A DNA stretch of 12,065 nt from a virus (taxonomy: Duplodnaviria > Heunggongvirae > Uroviricota > Caudoviricetes), in the IMG/VR virus record IMGVR_UViG_2579778856_000001; one strand, 5' to 3'. The position numbers were made by a program, and so were the translations under genes. The notes under the pieces are model-generated. The model had not been told where the DNA came from. It ran no database searches and saw only the letters and a list, made by a program, of their open reading frames with translations. Of the stretch, positions 221-9,798 are shown piece by piece. How positions within the stretch are numbered: the stretch's first letter is position 1; each line of letters begins with the position of its first letter.

Positions 221-395
221 CGGCGGTCAGTTTACGCTTACGTCCCTTCTGGTCAAAATGGACGAAGAAATGCTCTGCTTCTTCGACAGCAACGGGCGAA
301 CCACCATGCCCCGTAAAGCTTTCTCCCTGCGTACTGGCGTAACCCGCCGCCAGCTGTTTCCAGACGCCATTTACTTCATTGAACGGGAGTTCTGA
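210..395 (+). pseudogene. Probable C-terminal remnant of the gene that preceded the radC-like gene, cut off by the IS insertion
   Basis: 61-codon ORF whose ATG lies at the predicted IS boundary. The frame only opens at 192 (TAA at 189-191). Its TGA (393-395) sits one base before the radC-like ATG (397), the tight coupling expected of the original operon partner. No recognisable domain. In CP4-type islands the gene upstream of radC-like is usually an antirestriction (KlcA/ArdB-like) or YeeR-like gene; that is inference only. Confidence 0.25.
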
Positions 396-396
396 C

Positions 397-849
397 ATGA
401 CCATGTTTACCCAGCGTGAAACCCGTATCCTTGACCAGGCGCGTGACATTATTAGCCGGTACTACCAGCGTGGGGTTCAACTCTGTTCCCCTGATGATGT
501 TCGACGGTGCGTGATGGTTGAGCTGGCACCGCTTGAACATGAAGAGTTTGGCATCATCCTACTCGATAATCATAATCAGCTGCTGCACCGCGAAATCCTG
601 TTCAGGGGTACGCTAAACTCGGTCAGCGTTCACCCCCGTGAAGTTATTAAGCGTGTGCTGAAACATAACGCCGCCGCCGTCATCCTTGTCCATAATCACC
701 CCAGCGGCGAGCCTGAACCCAGCCGGTGTGACATCCAGTTGACCAAAAAGCTTCAGGAGCTGCTGGAAATACTGGATGTGCGGTTACTTGATCACTTTAT
801 CGTGGCAGGAACTGAAACGGTGTCGATGGCTGAGCGAGGACTGGTGTGA
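397..849 (+). CDS. RadC-like JAB/JAMM-domain protein (DUF2466; YeeS/YfjY/YkfG-type of CP4 cryptic prophages)
   Basis: Translation MTMFTQRETRILDQARDI...HPREVIKRVLKHNAAAVILVHNHPSGEPEPSRCDIQLTKKL contains the complete JAMM signature H-x-H-x7-S-x2-D (HNHPSGEPEPSRCD) and the HPREV motif of the RadC family. The ORF track's TTG start at 379 is less likely than ATG 397 or 403. Confidence 0.85.
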   Translation: MTMFTQRETRILDQARDIISRYYQRGVQLCSPDDVRRCVMVELAPLEHEEFGIILLDNHNQLLHREILFRGTLNSVSVHPREVIKRVLKHNAAAVILVHNHPSGEPEPSRCDIQLTKKLQELLEILDVRLLDHFIVAGTETVSMAERGLV

Positions 850-895
850 TGCTGAAAGTTACTTGGTTTAATGTACGTTATTGCGGGTTACGCGC

Positions 896-1825
896 ATGAG
901 CAGGACAGCGTTGCGTCAGGTCGTGCCGGTGGTGCAAACCACCGTGTTCGATGCGTATATTGTCGGTCTGGCCCCCTCGGGACGGCGAGGTATCACCAGC
1001 CTGTTAAACCGCAGCGCCAGCATACTTAAACACGGTGCGGATGCAGCAGACTATCCGTGGGAACAACTTAACTACGCCGCCGTTGCCAAAGTGCGCGCGG
1101 CACTGCTGGATGACGGTTACGCCGTGTCATCGGTCAACATGGCGCTGTCAGCACTCCGGGGCGTAGCGCAGACGGCCTTTAACCTCAATTACATGGATGC
1201 CGAAACGCTGGCACGTATCCGGTCAGTTAAGCGCGTGAGCGGCGATGTCCAGCGCAAGGGAAGGGCGCTGGGCAGGCAGGAAATCCGGGTACTGATTCAG
1301 GCTGCAAAACAGCATCCGCAATCTGTACGGCGCTGTCGCGATGTCGCCATTGTGCTGATGCTTTGCGGAACGGGCCTGCGGGCCGGGGAACTGGTTAAAC
1401 TTGAGCGCCGGGACTATGACAACGGCATCCTGACGGTGAGGCAAGGGAAGGGGCGTAAATACCGTGAAATTCACGTGGCGGATGCGGTGGACAAGGCTAT
1501 TCGTGCGTGGCTGAAAGTTGGCGCAGACGAGGCTGACAGTGCGTTGTTTAGGCGAATTCAGCGCAGTGGTAAGGTCGCAAGCCAACCGCTGACTACGACC
1601 GGGTTAACGGGTATCCTGGCTGAGTTACAGCAAACGGCAGGTATAGCACGTTTTACCCCGCATGATATGCGGCGCACCTTCATCACCCGTTTGCTGGAGC
1701 AGGGCGTGGATATCAATACCGTCCGCCAGTTGGCAGGCCACAGCGACATATCCACGACGACGCGCTATGACTGTCGTGGTGATACTATGAAGATCAGTGC
1801 CAGCAAGCGCATCAGATGTTTTTAG
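896..1825 (+). CDS. Tyrosine site-specific recombinase / integrase (small, about 309 aa, XerD-like size)
   Basis: Catalytic-domain signatures are present: LRAGEL (Arg), GKGRKYREI (Lys), HDMRRTF (His-x-x-Arg), GHSDISTTTRY (His ... nucleophilic Tyr). ATG 896 preferred over the track's TTG 881. No N-terminal DUF4102/SAM-like extension typical of P4-type integrases. Confidence 0.85.
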   Translation: MSRTALRQVVPVVQTTVFDAYIVGLAPSGRRGITSLLNRSASILKHGADAADYPWEQLNYAAVAKVRAALLDDGYAVSSVNMALSALRGVAQTAFNLNYMDAETLARIRSVKRVSGDVQRKGRALGRQEIRVLIQAAKQHPQSVRRCRDVAIVLMLCGTGLRAGELVKLERRDYDNGILTVRQGKGRKYREIHVADAVDKAIRAWLKVGADEADSALFRRIQRSGKVASQPLTTTGLTGILAELQQTAGIARFTPHDMRRTFITRLLEQGVDINTVRQLAGHSDISTTTRYDCRGDTMKISASKRIRCF

Positions 1826-2426
1826 CAGTTGAGGCGTTGCCAGACTCGGTTTCAGTTTCATCTTCAGCACTCAACCGCGCGTACTTTTGATTCTGGATGT
1901 TAATTTGTGCATTGATATTTTCAGGCTGAAGCATCCACGCAACATCCTCACGCGCCCATTCTTTACCGTCAGAGAGTCGTTTTAACCGGGGTTTCCATAT
2001 TCCATACTCATTAAGTTTTTCTGCTACCGAAGCATATTTCTCACGATCTGACTCCCCCGTATGAAGCTTGTCAAAACGACCTTTTACAAGCTGGTAAACA
2101 GTATAGATTTCCAGTGCCTTAGGGGACCTGGCCGGGACTATCATGGGGTGTTCCTCCGGCCTATAAATCCCGTTTGGCTCTCCCTCATTGAGCAGGTCAT
2201 TAAACATGTGGTTCACGCAGGCACTCAGCACATCTGCCGCTTTCTCCGCAGCGAATTTATCCGGGCTAAAACCCGCTCCCGTCAGTTTCCGGGCAATCAG
2301 TGCCAGTTTTTGCCGGGTATCCCGTCCCAGATAAAGCTTCTTCTCCAGAAATTCAAAGACCTCGTTACTGCTTTTCCGTTCCCGGTGGCATCTGGCGTCA
2401 GCCTTGTTGCTTTGGTTACCAATCAT
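1812..2426 (-). CDS. Hypothetical protein (204 aa), convergent with the integrase and divergent from alpA; candidate island repressor or accessory gene (the position yfjH occupies in CP4-57)
   Basis: Long minus-strand ORF. The second ATG (2426) is preceded by GGAGGTGA with a 4-nt spacer (minus strand reads ATGGAGGTGACTATGATTGG). Predicted product MIGNQSNKADARCHRERKSSNEVFEFLEKKLYLGRD... is mostly helical and acidic at the C-terminus, with no domain I can name. Its 3' end overlaps the int stop by about 14 bp. Confidence 0.6.
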   Translation of the reverse strand: MIGNQSNKADARCHRERKSSNEVFEFLEKKLYLGRDTRQKLALIARKLTGAGFSPDKFAAEKAADVLSACVNHMFNDLLNEGEPNGIYRPEEHPMIVPARSPKALEIYTVYQLVKGRFDKLHTGESDREKYASVAEKLNEYGIWKPRLKRLSDGKEWAREDVAWMLQPENINAQINIQNQKYARLSAEDETETESGNASTAKNI

Positions 2427-2648: not shown

Positions 2649-2846
2649 ATGAACACCAACCGTATTTTGCGTAAAAAAGAGGTACTTCATCTGACGGGGA
2701 ACTCGTCAGCGACGTTGTACCGACTCATCTCGAAAGGATTCTTTCCTTTGTCAAAGAGGCTAACGGGCGACAATGGCCGGGCGGTAGGCTGGCTGGAGAG
2801 TGATATCAATAACTGGGTTAACAGCCGTATGCAGGCGGGAGAATGA
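2649..2846 (+). CDS. alpA: AlpA-family phage transcriptional regulator (MerR-like HTH; P4 Vis / CP4-57 AlpA type)
   Basis: 65 aa: MNTNRILRKKEVLHLTGNSSATLYRLISKGFFPLSKRLTGDNGRAVGWLESDINNWVNSRMQ. Shows the canonical AlpA pattern (L/I)R.xEV..LTG.S.sTiYRli..G.FP....L....VGW.esei..W. AGGAGC lies 7 nt upstream of the ATG. Confidence 0.85.
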   Translation: MNTNRILRKKEVLHLTGNSSATLYRLISKGFFPLSKRLTGDNGRAVGWLESDINNWVNSRMQAGE

Positions 2847-2847
2847 A

Positions 2848-3315
2848 ATGAAAGAGATAAAATCGAAAACCAGTTCTGCGAAAAAAACGCTGGTTCCTTG
2901 GTTCGAAACTATGGGGAAACAGGTTGGTTTATCACAAGAAACGATATCAGCAGTGTTAAAGGAGCAGCGTTTACGGATACGTAAGCTTAACTACGCATCT
3001 GCATATACAGTGTCCAATATTCTCATACAGGATTGCGGCGGGGCCGATGACATGTGGAGCAACTACGCTAAACTGGCGCTTATCCTTGAGCGTTGTAAAT
3101 ACATTCCCTGCGGGAGCAGGGCCTGTGCATATTGTTCTACCGCTCAGCAATTACATTATCAGGGGGTGGATGTAACCGGGGAATACGCTTTATATCAGTT
3201 GCCTGAGTTATTTTTAGATTTTTTAGAAACAAACGACAAAAATTCCTCTTATCATTGGGATTACAATAAGTTAGTTGAGCGGCATGAAGATGCTCAGGCG
3301 AGGTCATTCGGGTAA
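2848..3315 (+). CDS. Hypothetical protein (155 aa), translationally coupled to alpA; Cys-rich patch CKYIPCGSRACAYC
   Basis: ATG 2848 lies 1 nt after the alpA TGA (GAATGAAATGAAA), with GGGAGAA upstream. The track's 2800 start is an in-frame upstream ATG inside alpA and is less likely. The C-x4-C-x4-C-x2-C cluster suggests a possible metal site. No family recognised. Confidence 0.6.
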   Translation: MKEIKSKTSSAKKTLVPWFETMGKQVGLSQETISAVLKEQRLRIRKLNYASAYTVSNILIQDCGGADDMWSNYAKLALILERCKYIPCGSRACAYCSTAQQLHYQGVDVTGEYALYQLPELFLDFLETNDKNSSYHWDYNKLVERHEDAQARSFG

Positions 3316-3347
3316 TAGCCATTTCTGTATGGTGAAAAACTGACATA

Positions 3348-3380
3348 TTACCCTGCCACTGCATTTTGGTGGCAGGGTAA
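3348..3380 (+). promoter_or_regulatory. Perfect 12-bp stem / 9-nt loop hairpin (TTACCCTGCCAC-TGCATTTTG-GTGGCAGGGTAA) between the 155-aa and 284-aa genes; no U-tract
   Basis: Read directly from sequence. There is no T-run after the stem, so it is not a classical intrinsic terminator. The loop plus stem carry CCACTGCATTTT, a 12-mer repeated in the iteron cluster at 4335-4346. Confidence 0.4.
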
Positions 3381-3402
3381 TCAATACAGCTAGGAATATT
3401 AA

Positions 3403-4257
3403 ATGAACGATTCTTATTACTTCAGAACATCTGACCCGGATTACATTCGTCACGCACCGTCAATGCTTGAGATTTTAAGTAAAGCATTCCCCACTATTAT
3501 TACCCAGCAGGAAAGTGAGTATGAACTGCAGCGTCTTAACCATTTACTAAATAAACTGAAAGGCAGCAATCGCTGCTACAACATCATTGCTCAAAAACTA
3601 AGGCAGTGCAGAAACGGATCTCCATGCAACAGTCTTATATGCCCGCATTGCCAGCGGGAACGCATTCTGGCGCAACTGGCTATGTTGCATGTCTTGCCGG
3701 GGAATTCAGCAGAATACGTGGGAGTGGTCCTGTTTTTCAACAAGGATACGCAAACTCCGCCGCCATGGAAGAACATTGGGGCGCTCAGGGCGCAAATCGG
3801 TCGTTATAAGCAGAGGATAAGCCGGGTACTTAACCGCCTGGGGTACGCCGGTCCGGCCACAGGCACCTTCAGTATGATGCGACATATGCCTGATGGCCCA
3901 GAAGAGCGTATTTTCTGGGTTCCACAGTTGTGTTTGTTCCTGCCCAATGACAGTACGTTGATTAAGGGGCTAAAAGCGCATATGTCGCGAAGTGGTGGGG
4001 CATTCATTGATGCATCGACGCTTAACACACCAGTGATCGTGCTCAGGTATAAAGATCCCGCGAGACTGATTTCATGCGCCCTGAATCCAGTCTGGCACAC
4101 AGCAGATTACACACTGACTGATAAAGACGCTCTTGTTAAGTCAAGAATGGAGCTACTGAAAGGCCGGACACTGTTAAAAAGTCTGCTTACCCTGGACTCA
4201 CTCGGAACAGGTGTCGTTTCTTTTTCGTTTGGGCAACCCCCAGGGAAAGTGCACTGA
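3403..4257 (+). CDS. Hypothetical protein (284 aa) with cysteine cluster RQCRNGSPCNSLICPHCQRER; candidate replication/DNA-binding component of the alpA operon
   Basis: ATG 3403 preceded by AGGAATATTAA. Continuous 284-codon ORF in the same orientation as alpA. C-x5-C-x4-C-x2-C resembles a zinc-ribbon. No confident family assignment. Confidence 0.65.
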   Translation: MNDSYYFRTSDPDYIRHAPSMLEILSKAFPTIITQQESEYELQRLNHLLNKLKGSNRCYNIIAQKLRQCRNGSPCNSLICPHCQRERILAQLAMLHVLPGNSAEYVGVVLFFNKDTQTPPPWKNIGALRAQIGRYKQRISRVLNRLGYAGPATGTFSMMRHMPDGPEERIFWVPQLCLFLPNDSTLIKGLKAHMSRSGGAFIDASTLNTPVIVLRYKDPARLISCALNPVWHTADYTLTDKDALVKSRMELLKGRTLLKSLLTLDSLGTGVVSFSFGQPPGKVH

Positions 4258-4272
4258 TTTACCGGTAATGCA

Positions 4273-4404
4273 GCAACTGCAATGCACTTTTGCTGTTGAT
4301 TAAATTGCAGTGGAACGACGAATAACAGCGGCAACCACTGCATTTTCGTTGTTGTAAAACTGCAAAGCTTGCCAGTGATTTTGATGGCGCTGATGCACTT
4401 TAAC
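4273..4404. repeat. Iteron-like direct and inverted repeat cluster (candidate replication origin or regulator binding array)
   Basis: GCAACTGCAATGCACTTTTGCTGTTG (4273-4298), an inverted copy AATTGCAGTGG (4303-4313), GCAACCACTGCATTTTCGTTGTTG (4331-4354), AACTGCAAAG (4358-4367), TGATGCACTTTAAC (4391-4404). Core (A/C)ACTGCA(A/T)T recurs five times. A/T-rich TTTAAC patches follow. Confidence 0.45.
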
Positions 4405-4833
4405 ATTCCAACTGTCTCGATTTTAACGCAACCGTCTGTTTTCTGCAGGGGCTCACGGATGCCTCTGCACACCCGATCCTTACCATCAACTGACGAGTTA
4501 GCGCATCTGTGAGGGCTTTCTGTGTTTCTGTCAGTGAATATTCTACACACAATGGGGGGAGCGGTCAGCGAGCACCATTGCCATTGAGCGCAACGGAGAG
4601 CTTGGGGACATGCAGCACTACGGAGGCTTCATCTCCTTCTCATGTCATTAAACGATACGGCGAACGAGCGCAGCGAGTGAGGGAAGGCGTCAGCCTGAAC
4701 AGGGGGAAAGATTTGCGACCGGAGTGGAGCAAATCATGGGCGGAGCCCATCCTCGCGACTGGGGTTTTGACTTTCGAATTGCCCAGCGTTGAGTTTGGTT
4801 AATGTAGTGAGACGAGGATGCTGAGAGGGGACC

Positions 4834-6231
4834 GTGAGTACTGAAAAGGATTATCCAGTGAAGATCCCTAAGTGGGTTTATGACCGTATTACTGAAATAA
4901 CGGATTATGTCGTGGGGGATACGCAATGGGCTGTTACCCGGCGGCAGACAGTACGGTGGTTCCTGGCTCACATATGGCTGGAAACAGACGATGATGGCTG
5001 GACTATATGCACTGTCCGGGATATCCGTAGCAGCTATGCCAGTCTCCTGGGACAGTGTGAAATTAGTTACCAGGGGGAGTGCTTTATGTCCACGCTAACT
5101 GATTTCCTGCCGACACTTTCGGATATTGAATTTCGTGCAGGAAAAGCGAGCAAAGACCCGGAAAAGCGTAGAGCCAGTGCATGGCGGTTCAACCCCCTGC
5201 TGCCTGTGTGTGATGAGTCTGCCAGGGGTAAGTTAAATCTGGTTGACTTGGATACTGGTGAGTCTGTTAGTTTTAGAGCTCTGCTTCAGGGGAACGGGAA
5301 AGCTCCTGGGCATGCGATAGATGTAGAGAAACGCCAGACGGCCCTAAAACAAACGGAAAAGGACTTCTTGGCCAAAGTTGGGCGGGGGCGCATGAGTATA
5401 CAGTTTGTGAAGGAATTGCGTAGCCGTGAGCCGGATCACTATTACCGCGCAGGAATACGCAGCCTTAACCATCTCTACAATGGCAGGATTGAGGGACAAT
5501 ATGTCACTTACGACCATCATTATCGTCTGACGTTTGGAGGGCGGTATTATGATCAAGCTTTCCAGAATCTGCCCAATGAGTTCAAAGCTAAATTTCGGAC
5601 CGGGTTACTCAACTATGACATCGAAGCGTGCAATCTGGCCTGTCTGAACCATCTGTTCAGACAGTATGACGTCGATTATCGTGTGAAGTCATCGATATAT
5701 AAAACCATGATGGAACATACCGGGCTGACCCGTAAACAGTGCAAACAGATGGTCCATACCACCACCTACAGAATTGGGCGTGTGACTATTGGTGTTAATG
5801 ATGGCCTTGGGGCAAAAGTGTATGGATGGTGCGGTAACAGCAAAAAAAAGGCGCTAAAGATTTTGCGTTGGTGGAACCGTTATATCAGTCCATTGAAATC
5901 TGCGCTTGAGTCATTGCTGGAACGTGTGCATGGCGCACACCGCAAGAGTTGTTCATCACCGCGTAACTATCACAGGTACGCTAATGAAGTCGGATTAATA
6001 CTGGATCTTAATAGTGAGGTGTATCAGCGTGAAAAGACTCACCATCATCAATATGCGCGGAATAAGGCACTGTTGGCGTTTATGATCTGTGGTGTGGAGC
6101 AGGCGTATATCCGTGAGGTTGTCAGTATGAACCCTGGTCGTGTCTGCATGCTGGATCATGATGGGGTAGTGGCAACGGGCGCGCTTTCACTACCGGACTG
6201 GCGTGGTTTCACGATGAAAGTGAAGGACTAG
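4834..6231 (+). CDS. Hypothetical protein (465 aa) occupying the position of yfjI in CP4-57; carries motifs reminiscent of right-hand (PolA/T7-like) polymerase motifs A, B and C
   Basis: GTG 4834 is the first start after the in-frame TGA at 4822, with GAGAGGGG 3 nt upstream. Motif-like segments: LLNYDIEACNLACLNHL (aa 258-274), RKQCKQMVHTTTYRIG (aa 300-315, R-x3-K-x7-Y) and MLDHDG (aa 439-444). Spacings of about 42 and 139 aa are similar to Klenow's D705 / K758 / D882. Whether this is a real polymerase fold is unverified. Confidence 0.7.
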   Translation: MSTEKDYPVKIPKWVYDRITEITDYVVGDTQWAVTRRQTVRWFLAHIWLETDDDGWTICTVRDIRSSYASLLGQCEISYQGECFMSTLTDFLPTLSDIEFRAGKASKDPEKRRASAWRFNPLLPVCDESARGKLNLVDLDTGESVSFRALLQGNGKAPGHAIDVEKRQTALKQTEKDFLAKVGRGRMSIQFVKELRSREPDHYYRAGIRSLNHLYNGRIEGQYVTYDHHYRLTFGGRYYDQAFQNLPNEFKAKFRTGLLNYDIEACNLACLNHLFRQYDVDYRVKSSIYKTMMEHTGLTRKQCKQMVHTTTYRIGRVTIGVNDGLGAKVYGWCGNSKKKALKILRWWNRYISPLKSALESLLERVHGAHRKSCSSPRNYHRYANEVGLILDLNSEVYQREKTHHHQYARNKALLAFMICGVEQAYIREVVSMNPGRVCMLDHDGVVATGALSLPDWRGFTMKVKD

Positions 6232-6355: not shown

Positions 6356-7050
6356 TGTGAGTTCAACGGGTCGATGCAACGCTGTCCCTAATCAAGGGGG
6401 ACGTTGCCATGAAACGAAGAACTCGTATTAACTACACGCCAGAGCAAAAGGTGATTATTTGGGACAGATATAAGCAAGGTGATTCCCTGCATGATATCCC
6501 CCAGAATGTTCGACAGATTTCACTCTACTATCATGCCTACAATCCACCAGGCCGGTGGCTACCGTCCTCCCGTGCGAAAGCGGCACCGGTTAGCGTTTTC
6601 GCTTGATGAAAAAGAGGAGATATCCAGAGGACTGGTAGCAAAACGCATCATCAGGGACATCGCTGCTAAATTATCAATAGCTCCCTCAACGATTAGCCGC
6701 GAGATCAGGAGGCACGGCGGTGCAAAACAATACCGTGCAGCAAAAGCCGATCCTGCTGCGTGGGAAAATGCTCTGAGACCAAAACCTTGCAAGCTAATTG
6801 AAAGCCCCACATTGTGTAAAATCATTGCAGAGAAGATGCATCAGGACTGGTCGCCGGAACAAATTGGCGGTTGGCTAAAACGCTGTTATCCCGATAATCA
6901 GGAAATGCATGTGTCACATGAAATGATTTATAAAACGCTTTTTATACCAACCCGGGGAGCTTTAAAAAAAGAGCTGCAGCAATGCCTCAGAAGCGGAAGA
7001 GTAGTGCGTAGATCCAAAACCTCATCACTTAAAGTAAACAGAGATACATT
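6356..7050 (+). mobile_element. IS30-family insertion sequence remnant (left IR plus the 5' two-thirds of the transposase gene; 3' end deleted)
   Basis: 6356-6380 TGTGAGTTCAACGGGTCGATGCAAC resembles the IS30 left terminal IR (TGTAGATTCAATTGGTCAACGCAAC, from memory). The transposase start lies about 53 bp inside, as in IS30. Homology to the IS30 transposase stops near aa ...KVNRDT (about 7048), well before the DDE domain. Confidence 0.7.
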
Positions 7051-7090
7051 CTGGTCACGAATGCCCGGTTGTTCGTGCTTTGCGTTTTAA
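6409..7090 (+). pseudogene. IS30-family transposase, frameshifted (in the C5 run near 6500-6505) and C-terminally truncated
   Basis: Frame 1 (6409..) MKRRTRINYTPEQKVIIWDRYKQGDSLHDI matches the IS30 N-terminus pattern MRRTFTAEEKASVFELWKNGTGFSEI. Frame 2 (from about 6489) ...RMFDRFHSTIMPTIHQAGGYRPPVRKRHRLAFSLDEKEEISRGL...WSPEQIGGWLKR...YKTLF... matches the IS30 HTH region (...ERKRAVAHLTLSEREEIRAGL...WSPEQISGWLRR...YKTLY). The switch between frames occurs at atcCCCCCag. The last about 13 codons (FWSRMPGCSCFAF) are non-homologous read-through. Confidence 0.75.
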
Positions 7091-7227
7091 TCGCATTTTA
7101 CAGTTTCTGCCTGCGTGCAGAGGTTGATGGTATTTTCTGAAAAAGCGGCTCGCTTTGCTAATGCATATGGCACAAATACAACAGTTTGTGTCATTCTGAC
7201 CCATCTTTATACCGCGACGGTGGAAAC

Positions 7228-9798
7228 ATGGATGAGCTGCTAACCCTTGGCTGCATTGCTTTATTCTTCGCACTGGTGGTGGTTCCCATCCTCGCGATTA
7301 TCGCGCTCAGCCGCAGCACGGCTGTTCGTTCTGAGCTGGCGACCCTGCGTCGCCGGGTGGAGGTGCTTGAGCAGCGCGGTGTGACTGAAGCACCCGCCAC
7401 AGTGGTAACAACTGTGCCGCAGAGTGTTTCGCAGATGGTTGTGCCTGTTGAAACGTCTTCGCCTGCGGTTAACATCGTGCTGTCGGAGCCTGTGGCTGAT
7501 GTCACGCCTGAGTCCGTTGACCCCTGGCGTCCACAACCGAAGCCGCAAAACGAGGCGCTACCCACACCAGCGGTCGAACAATCTTCCGCTTTTGGTGGGG
7601 TGATGTCGTCCCTGGTGCGCTGGTTTATGCAGGGCAACCCGCTGGCAAAGCTGGGTATTCTGCTTCTCTTCCTTGGCTTCTCCTTCCTGCTGCGTTATAC
7701 GGTTGAACACTCCCTGTTCCCGCTTGAGCTACGTCTGGTGGCGACTTCGCTGTTTGCGATTGCCCTGCTGGTAGTGGGCTGGCGATTGCGGCATAAACAG
7801 CTGGTTTATGCGCTGATCATACAGGGTGGAGCTACGGGGACGCTCTATCTCACCGTTTTTGGCGCATTCTGGCTCTGGCAGATGCTGCCGATGACGCTGG
7901 CGTTTGCATTACTGGTGGCGATTTGCGCGGCGAGCGTGGGACTGGCGATTATGCAAAAAGCGCTCAGCCTCGCGATGCTGGCAAGTATCGGTGGCTATCT
8001 GGCACCGCTGTTGCTTTCCACCGGCGGCGGTAGTCATGTGGCGCTCTTCTCTTTCTACCTTCTGCTTTCCGTCGGTATTCTCGCCATCAGCATCTGGCAA
8101 CACTGGCGCGAGCTTAATCTGCTTGGCCTGTTATTTACCTTTGGTATCGGCGGTCTTTGGGGACTCGACGGCTATCGATCAGAGTATTACCTGAGCAGTC
8201 AGCTTTTCCTGATAGCCAATACGATCATTTTTGGTGTGCTGAGCGTGGCGCTATCGCTACGAGCACAGGAGAAAGGTAAGCAGATTATTGATGGCGTGCT
8301 GTTGTTTGCATCGCCGCTGGTCGGTTTTGGCATGCAGTACGCCATAACCCGGCATATGGAATATGGTCCGGCGCTTAGCGCGCTGGGTTACGGCGGTTTC
8401 TATCTGGCGTTAGCATGGCTTGCATTGCGTCGCTATCCCTCTTTGGGGAGGCCGCTGGTGCTGGCGGCGCTGGCGCTGGGTGGGGCATTTACCACGCTCG
8501 CTATCCCACTGGCGCTTTCGGCCCGCTGGACGGCGATGGCCTGGGCGCTGGAAGGTCTCGGCATCCTCTGGCTGGGCGTGCAACAGCAGCAGCGGCGTAT
8601 GAGCTATAGCGGCACTGCGCTGCTGGTGCTGGCAGTGTGCAGCGCGCTGTGGGCGCAGATGAACGGGATGAGCGCGCTTTCTCTGGTGCTAATCTTTGCC
8701 GTACTCAGCCTCAGCTGGCTGGCTGCCGCCTGGCTGTGGCGCAATATTCAGTTGCAGGGTAGTTGGGTTCTGTTGGCTGGCGGTTTGATCTTCTGGATAA
8801 TCGCGCTCATTGGGGCATCGCAACTGGTGCTGAAAAAGGACTCGCTGGTGCTGTCTGGCGTGCTGGCGTTAATGGCGATATCGGTCTGGGGCTGGCGGAT
8901 TGTCTCTGGTCGTCTGGCCTGGTGGGAGCTGGATGTCAGCAAATGGTTGCTGTGGCCGACGATGCTGGTGATGCTGCTGTCTCAAATTTCACAACATGAG
9001 ATTTTTGCTGCGGGCTGGCAGAATCTGGCCTGGTGTCTGGCGTTACCCGCTGCGGGGGCATTGCTCTGGCGTGATGCTGAGACGTTGCCGCCGCGCCTCT
9101 CCAGACTGGCGCACCTTTCACTCTTCTGGATGATTCTGCTCGCGCTGGCGGCGGAGCTATTCTGGTTTGCGCAAGATCTGCCATGGGGCATGGCGGCGTG
9201 GGGCTCCGGCCTGATGATGGCCGCGGGGGGCCTGCTCATCTTTCTCGTTCATGAGGCGGTTCATCGTCAGCTATGGCCATTCCGAAGCTGGCCCGCACTC
9301 TACGCTTCTCAGGCGATGATACCGGTAGCTGCGGTATTGGTTGTTCTGCTAGTACTGACGAATTTGCAGGATGGCGTAGTTTATCGCCAGACCTGGCTGC
9401 CGCTGGTGAATCCACTGGAGGAGGGGGCCGCTTTTGCGCTACTGGGACTCATTGTATTTTATCGCGTTTCGCAGCGCTTTTTCCCGGTGCAGATTTCGGT
9501 ATGCCGTCCCTGGCCGCTCATTGCACTGCTGGCGCTTAGCTTCTGGTGGCTGAATGGCATCCTGCTGCGCGCATTGGCCTGGTACGGCGAAGTGCCCTGG
9601 AGCGCGGAAACACTGTGGCATTCGCGGCTGATTCAGACCTGTTTTGCCCTGTTCTGGATGCTGGCGGCATTAGTGGTGATGCTACGTGCGACCCGGCGTT
9701 GCTCACGTCGCGAATGGCTTTGTGGATCCGTATTGTTAGGGATTGTTATTGTGAAACTGATGTTGGTAGACAGTGCGCGTGGCGGCGGCCTGGCATGA
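7228..9798 (+). CDS. Large polytopic inner-membrane protein (856 aa). Architecture: N-terminal TM + coiled-coil + Pro-rich linker + more than 20 TM helices, as in DUF2339-family proteins. Probably chromosomal backbone
   Basis: ATG 7228 is preceded by GGTGGAAAC. The track's 7186 start lacks an RBS. Uninterrupted 870-codon frame. Very hydrophobic, L/A/W-rich repeats of predicted TM segments. Visibly higher GC than the flanking island genes. Family call is from recalled architecture only. Confidence 0.75.
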   Translation: MDELLTLGCIALFFALVVVPILAIIALSRSTAVRSELATLRRRVEVLEQRGVTEAPATVVTTVPQSVSQMVVPVETSSPAVNIVLSEPVADVTPESVDPWRPQPKPQNEALPTPAVEQSSAFGGVMSSLVRWFMQGNPLAKLGILLLFLGFSFLLRYTVEHSLFPLELRLVATSLFAIALLVVGWRLRHKQLVYALIIQGGATGTLYLTVFGAFWLWQMLPMTLAFALLVAICAASVGLAIMQKALSLAMLASIGGYLAPLLLSTGGGSHVALFSFYLLLSVGILAISIWQHWRELNLLGLLFTFGIGGLWGLDGYRSEYYLSSQLFLIANTIIFGVLSVALSLRAQEKGKQIIDGVLLFASPLVGFGMQYAITRHMEYGPALSALGYGGFYLALAWLALRRYPSLGRPLVLAALALGGAFTTLAIPLALSARWTAMAWALEGLGILWLGVQQQQRRMSYSGTALLVLAVCSALWAQMNGMSALSLVLIFAVLSLSWLAAAWLWRNIQLQGSWVLLAGGLIFWIIALIGASQLVLKKDSLVLSGVLALMAISVWGWRIVSGRLAWWELDVSKWLLWPTMLVMLLSQISQHEIFAAGWQNLAWCLALPAAGALLWRDAETLPPRLSRLAHLSLFWMILLALAAELFWFAQDLPWGMAAWGSGLMMAAGGLLIFLVHEAVHRQLWPFRSWPALYASQAMIPVAAVLVVLLVLTNLQDGVVYRQTWLPLVNPLEEGAAFALLGLIVFYRVSQRFFPVQISVCRPWPLIALLALSFWWLNGILLRALAWYGEVPWSAETLWHSRLIQTCFALFWMLAALVVMLRATRRCSRREWLCGSVLLGIVIVKLMLVDSARGGGLA

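Follow-up and report, generated by a model that had tools for sequence, protein, structure and literature searches.

A phased array of six half-sites beside a polymerase-like gene in Enterobacterales islands: putative binding sites of a 284-aa zinc-finger protein

The IMG/VR virus record IMGVR_UViG_2579778856_000001 (12,065 nucleotides, hereafter the window) carries a repeat array between two genes, encoding proteins of 284 and 465 amino acids (aa), which raises the question of what binds these repeats and what the binding controls. The original prediction had described an iteron-like array sharing a 12-mer with an upstream hairpin, and had proposed that a single sequence-specific DNA-binding protein acts at both places, at an origin of replication or a control locus. 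Our analysis suggests, with a probability of roughly 0.5, that the array is a set of phased half-sites for the 284-aa protein, and that the 284-aa/465-aa module has a two-part control region in which the array is the upstream, accessory half. The features discussed below are collected in Table 1.

The array comprises six half-sites of the form TGCA-N-TTT, whose orientation alternates. They form three AAANTGCA-N29-TGCANTTT units with a period of 55-56 bp, and a 27-bp unit of the array reads TGCACTTTTGCTGTTGATTAAATTGCA. The half-sites follow one another with start-to-start spacings of 37, 19, 37, 18, and 37, and their TGCA cores with spacings of 33, 23, 33, 22, and 33 bp. These core spacings are roughly multiples of 11 bp, and all cores therefore lie on one face of the helix. 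The elements first noticed in this region were confirmed, namely the two direct repeats of about 24 bp (GCAACTGCAATGCACTTTTGCTGTTG at 4273-4298 and GCAACCACTGCATTTTCGTTGTTG at 4331-4354, with starts 58 bp apart), the inverted copy ATTGCAGTGG (4305-4314) of the core CCACTGCAAT, and the 12-mer CCACTGCATTTT, which occurs exactly at 4335-4346. The repeats within 4273-4404, the extent originally given to the array, are real, but the description was incomplete, as half-site 1 (4246) lies outside it.

The whole window contains eight TGCANTTT sites, compared with 3.1 expected, and six of the eight fall within 156 bp. A density of at least four half-sites per 160 bp was reached in 0 of 1000 windows simulated with an order-1 Markov model. 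The half-site motif was picked after inspection of the sequence; its conservation in distant relatives provides independent support. Once described in this way, the repeats are clearly non-random.

Relatives of the locus were gathered via both flanking proteins and a DNA motif. In the close relatives (E. coli FDAARGOS_497, Cedecea, and several metagenome contigs), the 284-aa protein is 80-94% identical. The deeper ones are L020 (50%), Pectobacterium L011 (42-45%), Serratia L012 and Yersinia L013 (both about 41-42%), and L029 (35%), and four further lineages (Salmonella L014/15, L030, L031, and L032) have no 284-like gene. Among the close relatives, the array region showed 27 variable sites per 100 nt, compared with 21 per 100 in the 284-aa gene, and hence no higher conservation overall. 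In the distant lineages, the DNA between the half-sites was unalignable, and the half-sites were still in register. Measured from an invariant motif downstream, the half-sites of the window lie at -306, -269, -250, -213, -195, and -158, and these offsets were conserved within 2 bp in L011, L012, L013, L020, and L029. In an ungapped alignment of five deep lineages on the downstream anchor, identity was 83% in half-site columns and 43% in other columns, and the observed register was the best of 180 circular shifts.

The individual sites differ in how widely they are kept. Half-site 5 was retained at -193 to -195 in L011, L012, L013, L020, and L029, half-site 4 at -212 or -213 in L011, L012, L020, and L029, and half-site 6 at -156 to -158 in L012, L013, L020, and L029, with a degenerate form in L011. 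Half-site 1 was found at -306 or -304 in L011 and L013, and half-site 2 in L020 and L011, with only its TGCA core present in L012 and L013. All six half-sites are recognisable in the E. coli group, whereas L011 retains five, L012 four, and L029 three. The original prediction hinged on conservation of the repeats in homologous islands. They were kept in all lineages with a 284-like gene, while L014/15, L030, L031, and L032 showed no array. This phylogenetic footprint predicts that the array consists of conserved sites of a sequence-specific DNA-binding protein.

Protein recognition has to be weighed against RNA pairing, because the 8-nt arms of each unit can pair and the array begins at the stop codon of the 284-aa gene. 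The repeats might accordingly form hairpins in the 3' untranslated region of the 284-aa mRNA, serving its stability, attenuation, or termination. RNA stems need only complementarity, whereas the array copies all share one sequence, a TGCA core with a T-tract, which favours protein recognition; the arms show no free covariation. In L011, the central palindrome is altered on both arms, from TGCAGT...ACTGCA to TGCAGC...GCTGCA, and the palindrome is preserved. Furthermore, the stems would be only 8 bp long with loops of 29 nt, no T-run terminator was detected inside the array, and no Rfam family matched anywhere in the window at E-values up to 1. An RNA structure is hardly credible as the basis of the array.

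Which protein, then, would recognise the half-sites? The array lies directly 3' of the gene in every lineage with a 284-like gene, across protein identities of 35-100% and from E. coli to Yersinia, including L029, and half-site 1 overlaps the last codons of this gene. Conversely, TGCANTTT sites are absent from the interval between alpA and the polymerase gene in the four lineages lacking a 284-like gene, which carry another palindrome, TTTTCCATTTTTAAAAATGGAA, at about -150 from the invariant motif. This alternative palindrome is AT-rich, TTTTCCATT(T/A)TTAAAAATGGAAAA, and is found at about 6650-6680 in L014 and just after alpA in L030, L031, and L032. The 284-aa protein, which had been named as a possible binder, holds its place as the candidate, as its gene is the sole one whose presence tracks the array. 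It contains a zinc-finger-like motif, CxNxxPCx4CxxCxRxR, and a beta-alpha-beta-beta-alpha-beta core. We infer that the array most probably represents putative binding sites of this 284-aa zinc-finger protein. Two tandem paralogues of the family, 23-32% identical, occur in Yersinia L013 (4585-5430 and 5550-6407) and Serratia L012 (4628-5413 and 5621-6394). A Rep_1/HUH identity of the 284-aa protein, considered because of the C..CPxCxxR motif, was supported by neither the sequence nor the low-confidence structural model, and the HUH metal-binding motif and catalytic Tyr were absent from this protein.

Table 1. Positions in the window of the array, the neighbouring elements, and the genes.
Feature	Position	Strand	Remarks
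Whole array	4246-4401		six TGCA-N-TTT half-sites, alternating orientation
Half-site 1, AAAGTGCA	4246-4253	-	overlaps last codons (K-V-H) of the 284-aa gene
Half-site 2, TGCACTTT	4283-4290	+	
Half-site 3, AAATTGCA	4302-4309	-	left arm of the extended palindrome TTGCAGTGG...CCACTGCAA
Half-site 4, TGCATTTT	4339-4346	+	within the 12-mer at 4335-4346
Half-site 5, AAACTGCA	4357-4364	-	
Half-site 6, TGCACTTT	4394-4401	+	
Spacer	4402-4535		moderately conserved; array to initiation motif
Invariant motif, GAATATTCTACACACAATGGGGGGAGC	4536-4562	+	once per island; T7-group promoter-like
Leader	4543-4775	+	ultra-conserved, non-coding
Leader hairpin 1	4550-4555/4575-4580		
Leader hairpin 2	4710-4716/4729-4735		
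Leader hairpin 3	4736-4741/4745-4750		
Terminator-like stem and T-run	4751-4774		ends the leader block
Upstream hairpin	3347-3381	+	between 155-aa and 284-aa genes; 22 nt upstream of the 284-aa start codon
RadC gene	379-849		first in local gene order
XerC-like tyrosine recombinase gene	881-1825		
208-aa protein gene		-	between recombinase gene and alpA
AlpA-type excisionase/regulator gene	2649-2846		
155-aa protein gene	2848-3315		
284-aa protein gene	3403-4257	+	
Non-coding stretch, 576 bp			between 284-aa and 465-aa genes
465-aa protein gene	4834-6231	+	variable cargo downstream

AlpA and the recombinase are less compatible with the distribution of the array. Serratia L012 retains the array, the 284-like gene, and the polymerase gene, yet the 15 kb examined contain neither an XerC-like recombinase nor AlpA or RadC, which argues against AlpA or the recombinase as the binder. 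The same observation bears on the idea that the array is a core-type or accessory recombination site for the XerC-like recombinase and AlpA. The close pairs, TGCACTTTTG-CTGTTGA-TTAAATTGCA, do show the geometry of a tyrosine-recombinase core, with inverted arms of about 10 bp and a 7-bp spacer, and the two genes lie 1.4-3.4 kb upstream. However, Salmonella L014 has both proteins and no array, directly repeated core sites 56 bp apart would delete the intervening DNA, and all relatives are collinear on both sides of the array, where no junction is seen. A recombination site is thus very unlikely.

A purely transcriptional role should also be considered, in which the array would be an operator for host RNA polymerase and a repressor (the 284-aa protein, AlpA, or another) would control either read-through from the alpA-155-284 operon into the polymerase gene or a sigma-70 promoter. 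Dimeric repressors typically bind such palindromic pairs of half-sites, the genes on either side of the array are co-oriented, and the palindrome TTTTCCATTTTTAAAAATGGAA occupies a similar distance in the lineages without a 284-like gene. On the other hand, no sigma-70-like promoter was found on the + strand of 4258-4833, six sites over 156 bp exceed the needs of a simple operator, and L012 retains the array without AlpA and the recombinase. We regard a simple operator of this kind as unlikely.

Neither the array region nor the stretch between it and the invariant motif shows signs of coding. Substitutions in 4258-4552 occurred without 3-base periodicity, which ruled out the minus-strand open reading frames at 4107-4550 and 4400-4552. 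The spacer contains a second repeated motif, CAAC[TC]G[TA]C(T), at 4409-4417 and 4429-4437 (CAAC[TC]GTCT) and at 4487-4494 (CAACTGAC), and its AACTG and ACGTAAC-type blocks are also retained in Serratia and Yersinia.

The invariant motif downstream was present as a single copy in each island checked (L004, 29.6 kb; L011; L012; L013; and L014). Its variants read ...GACTACACACTATGGGGGGAGC in Serratia and Yersinia, ...TTTACTACACATAATGGGGGGAGC in Salmonella, and ...TACTACTCACTATGGGGCC in L032. In L032, nine consecutive bases, ACTCACTAT, followed by a G-run (GGGG), are common to T7 promoters (T7 ACTCACTATAGGG), for which we used promoters read directly from phage T7 (AATACGACTCACTATAGAGGGA and TAATACGACTCACTATAGGAGA). 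We treat this likeness as a resemblance only. No match to the motif was obtained in the viral contigs scanned. A sigma-70-like match on the minus strand (CTGACC-17-TAGAAT, 4568-4540) lies inside the conserved motif and faces the array; its hexamers are not conserved in Serratia.

The motif opens onto a leader whose conservation greatly exceeds that of the flanking genes, with 1.4 variable sites per 100 nt in 4530-4600 and 4.4 in 4662-4775, compared with the value of 21 given above for the 284-aa gene. The centre of the leader (4601-4660) is variable or deletable. The stem of the hairpin overlapping the motif covaries, reading CAATGG/CCATTG in the window, CTATGG/CCATAG in L012, CTATGGGG/CCCCATAG in L013, and TATGGGGC/GCCCCATA in L032, and the hairpins at 4710-4735 and 4736-4750 show compensatory or G-U changes. 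RNAalifold found the leader hairpins with a covariation term of only -0.52 kcal/mol, most double changes coming from one distant sequence, and the minimum free energy of the leader was no better than that of shuffled sequences on either strand (z = 0.77 and 0.17). The plus-strand open reading frame at 4509-4802 was likewise rejected as coding, on the lack of 3-base periodicity in 4258-4552 and also because relatives carry indels of 9 and 13 nt and nucleotide conservation approaches 100%.

Wherever the polymerase gene occurs, the motif and leader occur with it, whereas the array accompanies only the 284-like gene; the motif therefore appears to be the core cis element and the array an add-on. 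The leader block is proposed to contain the cognate initiation element of the polymerase together with a candidate leader, and it could be a non-coding RNA or an origin core.

The 465-aa protein, judged from its predicted fold and its catalytic motifs, appears to be a minimal A-family-type polymerase resembling the TV-Pols. TV-Pols, known from transposons and viruses, are minimal polymerases of a family-A-like type (Iyer, Abhiman & Aravind 2008, PMC2579912); they possess an RxxxK motif and two catalytic Asp residues but lack a nuclease domain (PMC2579912). The 465-aa protein shows the family-A palm/fingers/thumb fold without exonuclease domains, within a size of 400-600 residues. Motif A reads NYD262IEACN, motif B R300-x3-K304-x7-Y312, and motif C LDH442D443G. 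The residues D262, D443, R300, and K304, that is, the two Asp and the RxxxK motif, are invariant in 27 sequences down to 45% identity, and Y312 (motif B) and H442 (motif C) also count among the invariant residues. The N-terminal region of about 230 residues forms an extra domain, for which winged-helix matches were weak. We placed the start codon at 4834 because homologues of 455-470 aa occur down to 45% identity; the RefSeq annotation in ST131 genomes starts at 5086 and yields a truncated protein of 381 aa.

Sequence searches assigned this polymerase to no family of known function. The 284-aa, 155-aa, 208-aa, and 465-aa proteins had no significant match in Pfam, PHROGs, PADLOC, NCBIfam, or PDB sequences, for the proteins scanned in each, and for the 465-aa protein this includes Pfam, NCBIfam, and PADLOC. 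An exhaustive profile search for the 465-aa protein returned only this one cluster and distant relatives of 430-920 aa in phrog_30690 (function unknown). Foldseek against viral models listed uncharacterised Dickeya jumbo phage proteins first, followed by phage PolA proteins. An hhalign comparison with T7 DNA polymerase, which was not significant (E = 0.21), placed D262 on DASGLELR and R300/K304/Y312 on RDNAK...Y. The same non-significant path put a variable Asn at the position of the steric-gate Glu of family-A DNA polymerases, a weak hint that the 465-aa polymerase may accept ribonucleotides. In L032, a second and very distant homologue (381-1889, minus strand; 502 aa, 25% identity over the catalytic half) lies about 2 kb from the main copy.

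We propose that 284-aa dimers would occupy the paired half-sites. Because the TGCA cores recur at roughly multiples of 11 bp, these dimers would align on one face of about 150 bp of DNA, where they might assemble into a higher-order complex. The complex would gate the polymerase, by either loading or blocking it, at ACACA(Y)(W)ATGGGG, 158 bp downstream, so that the array probably controls where the polymerase starts. There the polymerase would begin synthesis de novo at the G-run and yield either a transcript or a primer with which the island is replicated. Polymerase chemistry would set the character of the locus, which may be origin-like, if primers are made to replicate the excised island (a role proposed for SCCmec), or promoter-like. 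Within this scheme, the identity of the binder, its assembly into oligomers, the direction in which it exerts control, and DNA or RNA as the product are inferred.

Several observations weigh against assigning the array to the 284-aa protein in this way. As few as one or two loss events may account for the joint distribution of gene and array, and a single deletion would remove both, as they are adjacent. In L007-L009, the 284-like gene is frameshifted (170-aa and 127-aa open reading frames) and the array is intact. The predicted model of the 284-aa protein was poor (pLDDT 55) and its fold matches were generic ferredoxin-like domains, which do not in themselves point to DNA binding. Additionally, many ST131 genomes carry ISEc52 (IS3 family) at about 4476-4478 (L001, 10180-11428), which puts about 1.25 kb between the array and the conserved motif with the polymerase gene; the host therefore does not need the intact arrangement, which is not under selection there.

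The original prediction had suggested an origin of replication or a control locus. The part that stands is a conserved array beside genes of a plausible replication or initiation module, while a classical iteron origin was unsupported. A classical theta iteron origin has at least three direct repeats, each of 17-22 bp and all in the same orientation, at intervals of about two helical turns. If the array itself were such an origin, an initiator would assemble on it, unwind the DNA, and start replication of the excised island. Consistent with this, the sites are repeated and helix-phased over about 150 bp, a gene for a TV-Pol-type polymerase adjoins them, and a candidate initiator gene lies directly 5' of the array, an arrangement shared with SaPI and SCCmec origins (PMC7581432). 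However, the half-sites alternate in orientation rather than forming direct iterons of 17-22 bp, and the direct-repeat period is 55-56 bp. DnaA boxes (TTWTNCACA, at most 1 mismatch) were not enriched (23 compared with 20.7 expected) and none fell in the array, and no AT-rich unwinding element was seen, the lowest GC content being 0.40 per 40-bp window across 4150-4900. The module encodes no helicase; Pfam and NCBIfam found no helicase or P-loop domain in the 208-aa, AlpA, 155-aa, 284-aa, and 465-aa proteins. Four lineages have the polymerase gene and the invariant motif yet no array, and the half-site number drops from six to three or four in others, so the indispensable cis element appears to be the motif with its leader, not the array. 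We therefore consider an iteron origin rather unlikely. The locus also differs from the iteron plasmids (F RepE, pSC101, R6K, and P1), in that no Rep_3-type protein was recognised, direct iterons of 17-22 bp do not form a run, and both DnaA boxes and an AT-rich unwinding element are missing.

The accessory control region that we favour has a closer counterpart in SCCmec, where CCPol and MP form a DNA primase whose partner at the adjoining iteron origin is the Cch2 helicase (PMC7581432, PMC10061031). Like the pattern-2 SCCmec module, the island carries a minimal A-family polymerase without exonuclease domains beside a site-specific recombinase, and an adjoining conserved intergenic region with short inverted and direct repeats. 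The SCCmec enzyme prefers G for the start of priming, a preference mirrored by the G-run at which we propose that initiation occurs. The likeness between the SCCmec iteron AAGTG and the half-site AAAGTGCA is probably coincidental. The differences are equally clear. Scans with Pfam and NCBIfam identified no D5/Cch2-type helicase and no recognisable OB-fold MP partner, and the 155-aa protein matched no family. The recombinase is of the tyrosine type rather than the serine type of SCCmec, the hosts are Enterobacterales rather than Bacillota, and the sites are alternating half-sites with a zinc-finger protein as their candidate binder. Moreover, CCPol keeps the steric-gate Glu, which the 465-aa polymerase appears to lack in the non-significant alignment.

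One subset of the TV-Pols has an extra N-terminal domain and neighbours lambda-type integrases, at integration hot spots where restriction-modification genes abound (PMC2579912). The neighbourhood of the 465-aa gene matches this integrase-linked, restriction-modification-rich subset. The link by sequence runs only through the distant relatives in phrog_30690, and the likeness of the 465-aa protein is one of fold and motifs. No cis element like this array has been described for TV-Pols.

A bolder interpretation takes the 465-aa protein for the smallest single-subunit T7-like RNA polymerase known so far, or for an RNA-making primase of the same lineage. The invariant motif would then be its promoter, with the start at the G-run at 4554 and, as products, a functional leader RNA of about 220 nt and perhaps also its own mRNA, and the array with the 284-aa protein would act as a post-induction switch. 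Unlike T7-group RNA polymerases, the 465-aa protein is half the size of T7 RNA polymerase, and each island has one motif, partly within a conserved hairpin, instead of many promoters. We consider this interpretation possible, if doubtful.

The module appears to be undescribed. It combines a zinc-finger protein and the phased half-site array with an unannotated A-family polymerase, whose gene is preceded by the ultra-conserved leader and the invariant motif resembling T7 promoters. The array itself is akin to known origin and operator arrays of mobile-element replication modules, and the interest of the locus comes mainly from the polymerase module. If this is a replication or priming system, islands carrying defence genes would be replicative elements, as proposed for SCCmec, which bears on their stability and spread, and primases of the CCPol/TV-Pol type would be extended from Bacillota to Enterobacterales with other partners. 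If the polymerase makes RNA from its own promoter, it would constitute a very compact orthogonal transcription system of practical interest.

Does the same protein also act at the upstream hairpin? An exact second copy of the 12-mer does exist there, at 3356-3367 instead of 3354-3365, comprising the last four bases of the left arm and most of the loop. The hairpin has 13-bp arms (3347-3359 and 3369-3381), not the 12-bp stem first described, with 9 nt in the loop. Compensatory changes preserve the stem (in L005, CCAC/GTGG becomes CTGC/GCAG), and the loops fall into two unrelated families. The TGCATTTT loop occurs only in the lineage of the window, L022, and L026, and a different loop, TTGCTTTAC..., in L002, L003, L005, L010, and L027. 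Even among the closest lineages there is variation inside the 12-mer, the L026 loop reading CAACTGCATTTT. The recurrence had been thought improbable in 12 kb. Simulated windows averaged 5.8 exact 12-mer pair counts, and 99% of them had one or more; in the real window there are 13, distributed over nine separate repeat loci. The proposal of one protein at both places consequently finds no support, as the hairpin 12-mer is missing in most relatives and chance recurrence is expected. For these reasons, we excluded the hairpin from the array system. The link between array and hairpin is most likely due to chance, and the hairpin copy may be a lineage-specific seventh half-site. No T-run follows the hairpin, which is thus not a canonical terminator. 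Another repeat, the 14-mer TGCCAGTTCCACCA at 79 and 11246, has unrelated flanks and was rejected as a chance repeat.

The locus is widespread in bacterial chromosomes. Chromosomal DNA that equals the segment 3300-4900, or matches it at 92% identity, occurs in 585 of 5426 complete E. coli genomes, most of them of the ST131 type, which places the array module in about 11% of them. No tRNA genes were found. The host island is large, with one end formed by a P4-type integrase beside ychF, and islands with the module also occur in Salmonella, Yersinia, Serratia, Pectobacterium, Citrobacter, and Raoultella. The region between the conserved module and the P4-type integrase at ychF looks like a defence-gene hot spot. 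The cargo directly 3' of the polymerase gene is different in each lineage (L003, L007, L011, L013, L014, L031, and the window at 6479-9798), and includes SIR2, methyltransferases, a deaminase, HNH, an S8 peptidase with an AAA protein, a type I restriction-modification system, and a DEAD-box helicase. In the window, the cargo comprises DUF2339/DUF3999 proteins.

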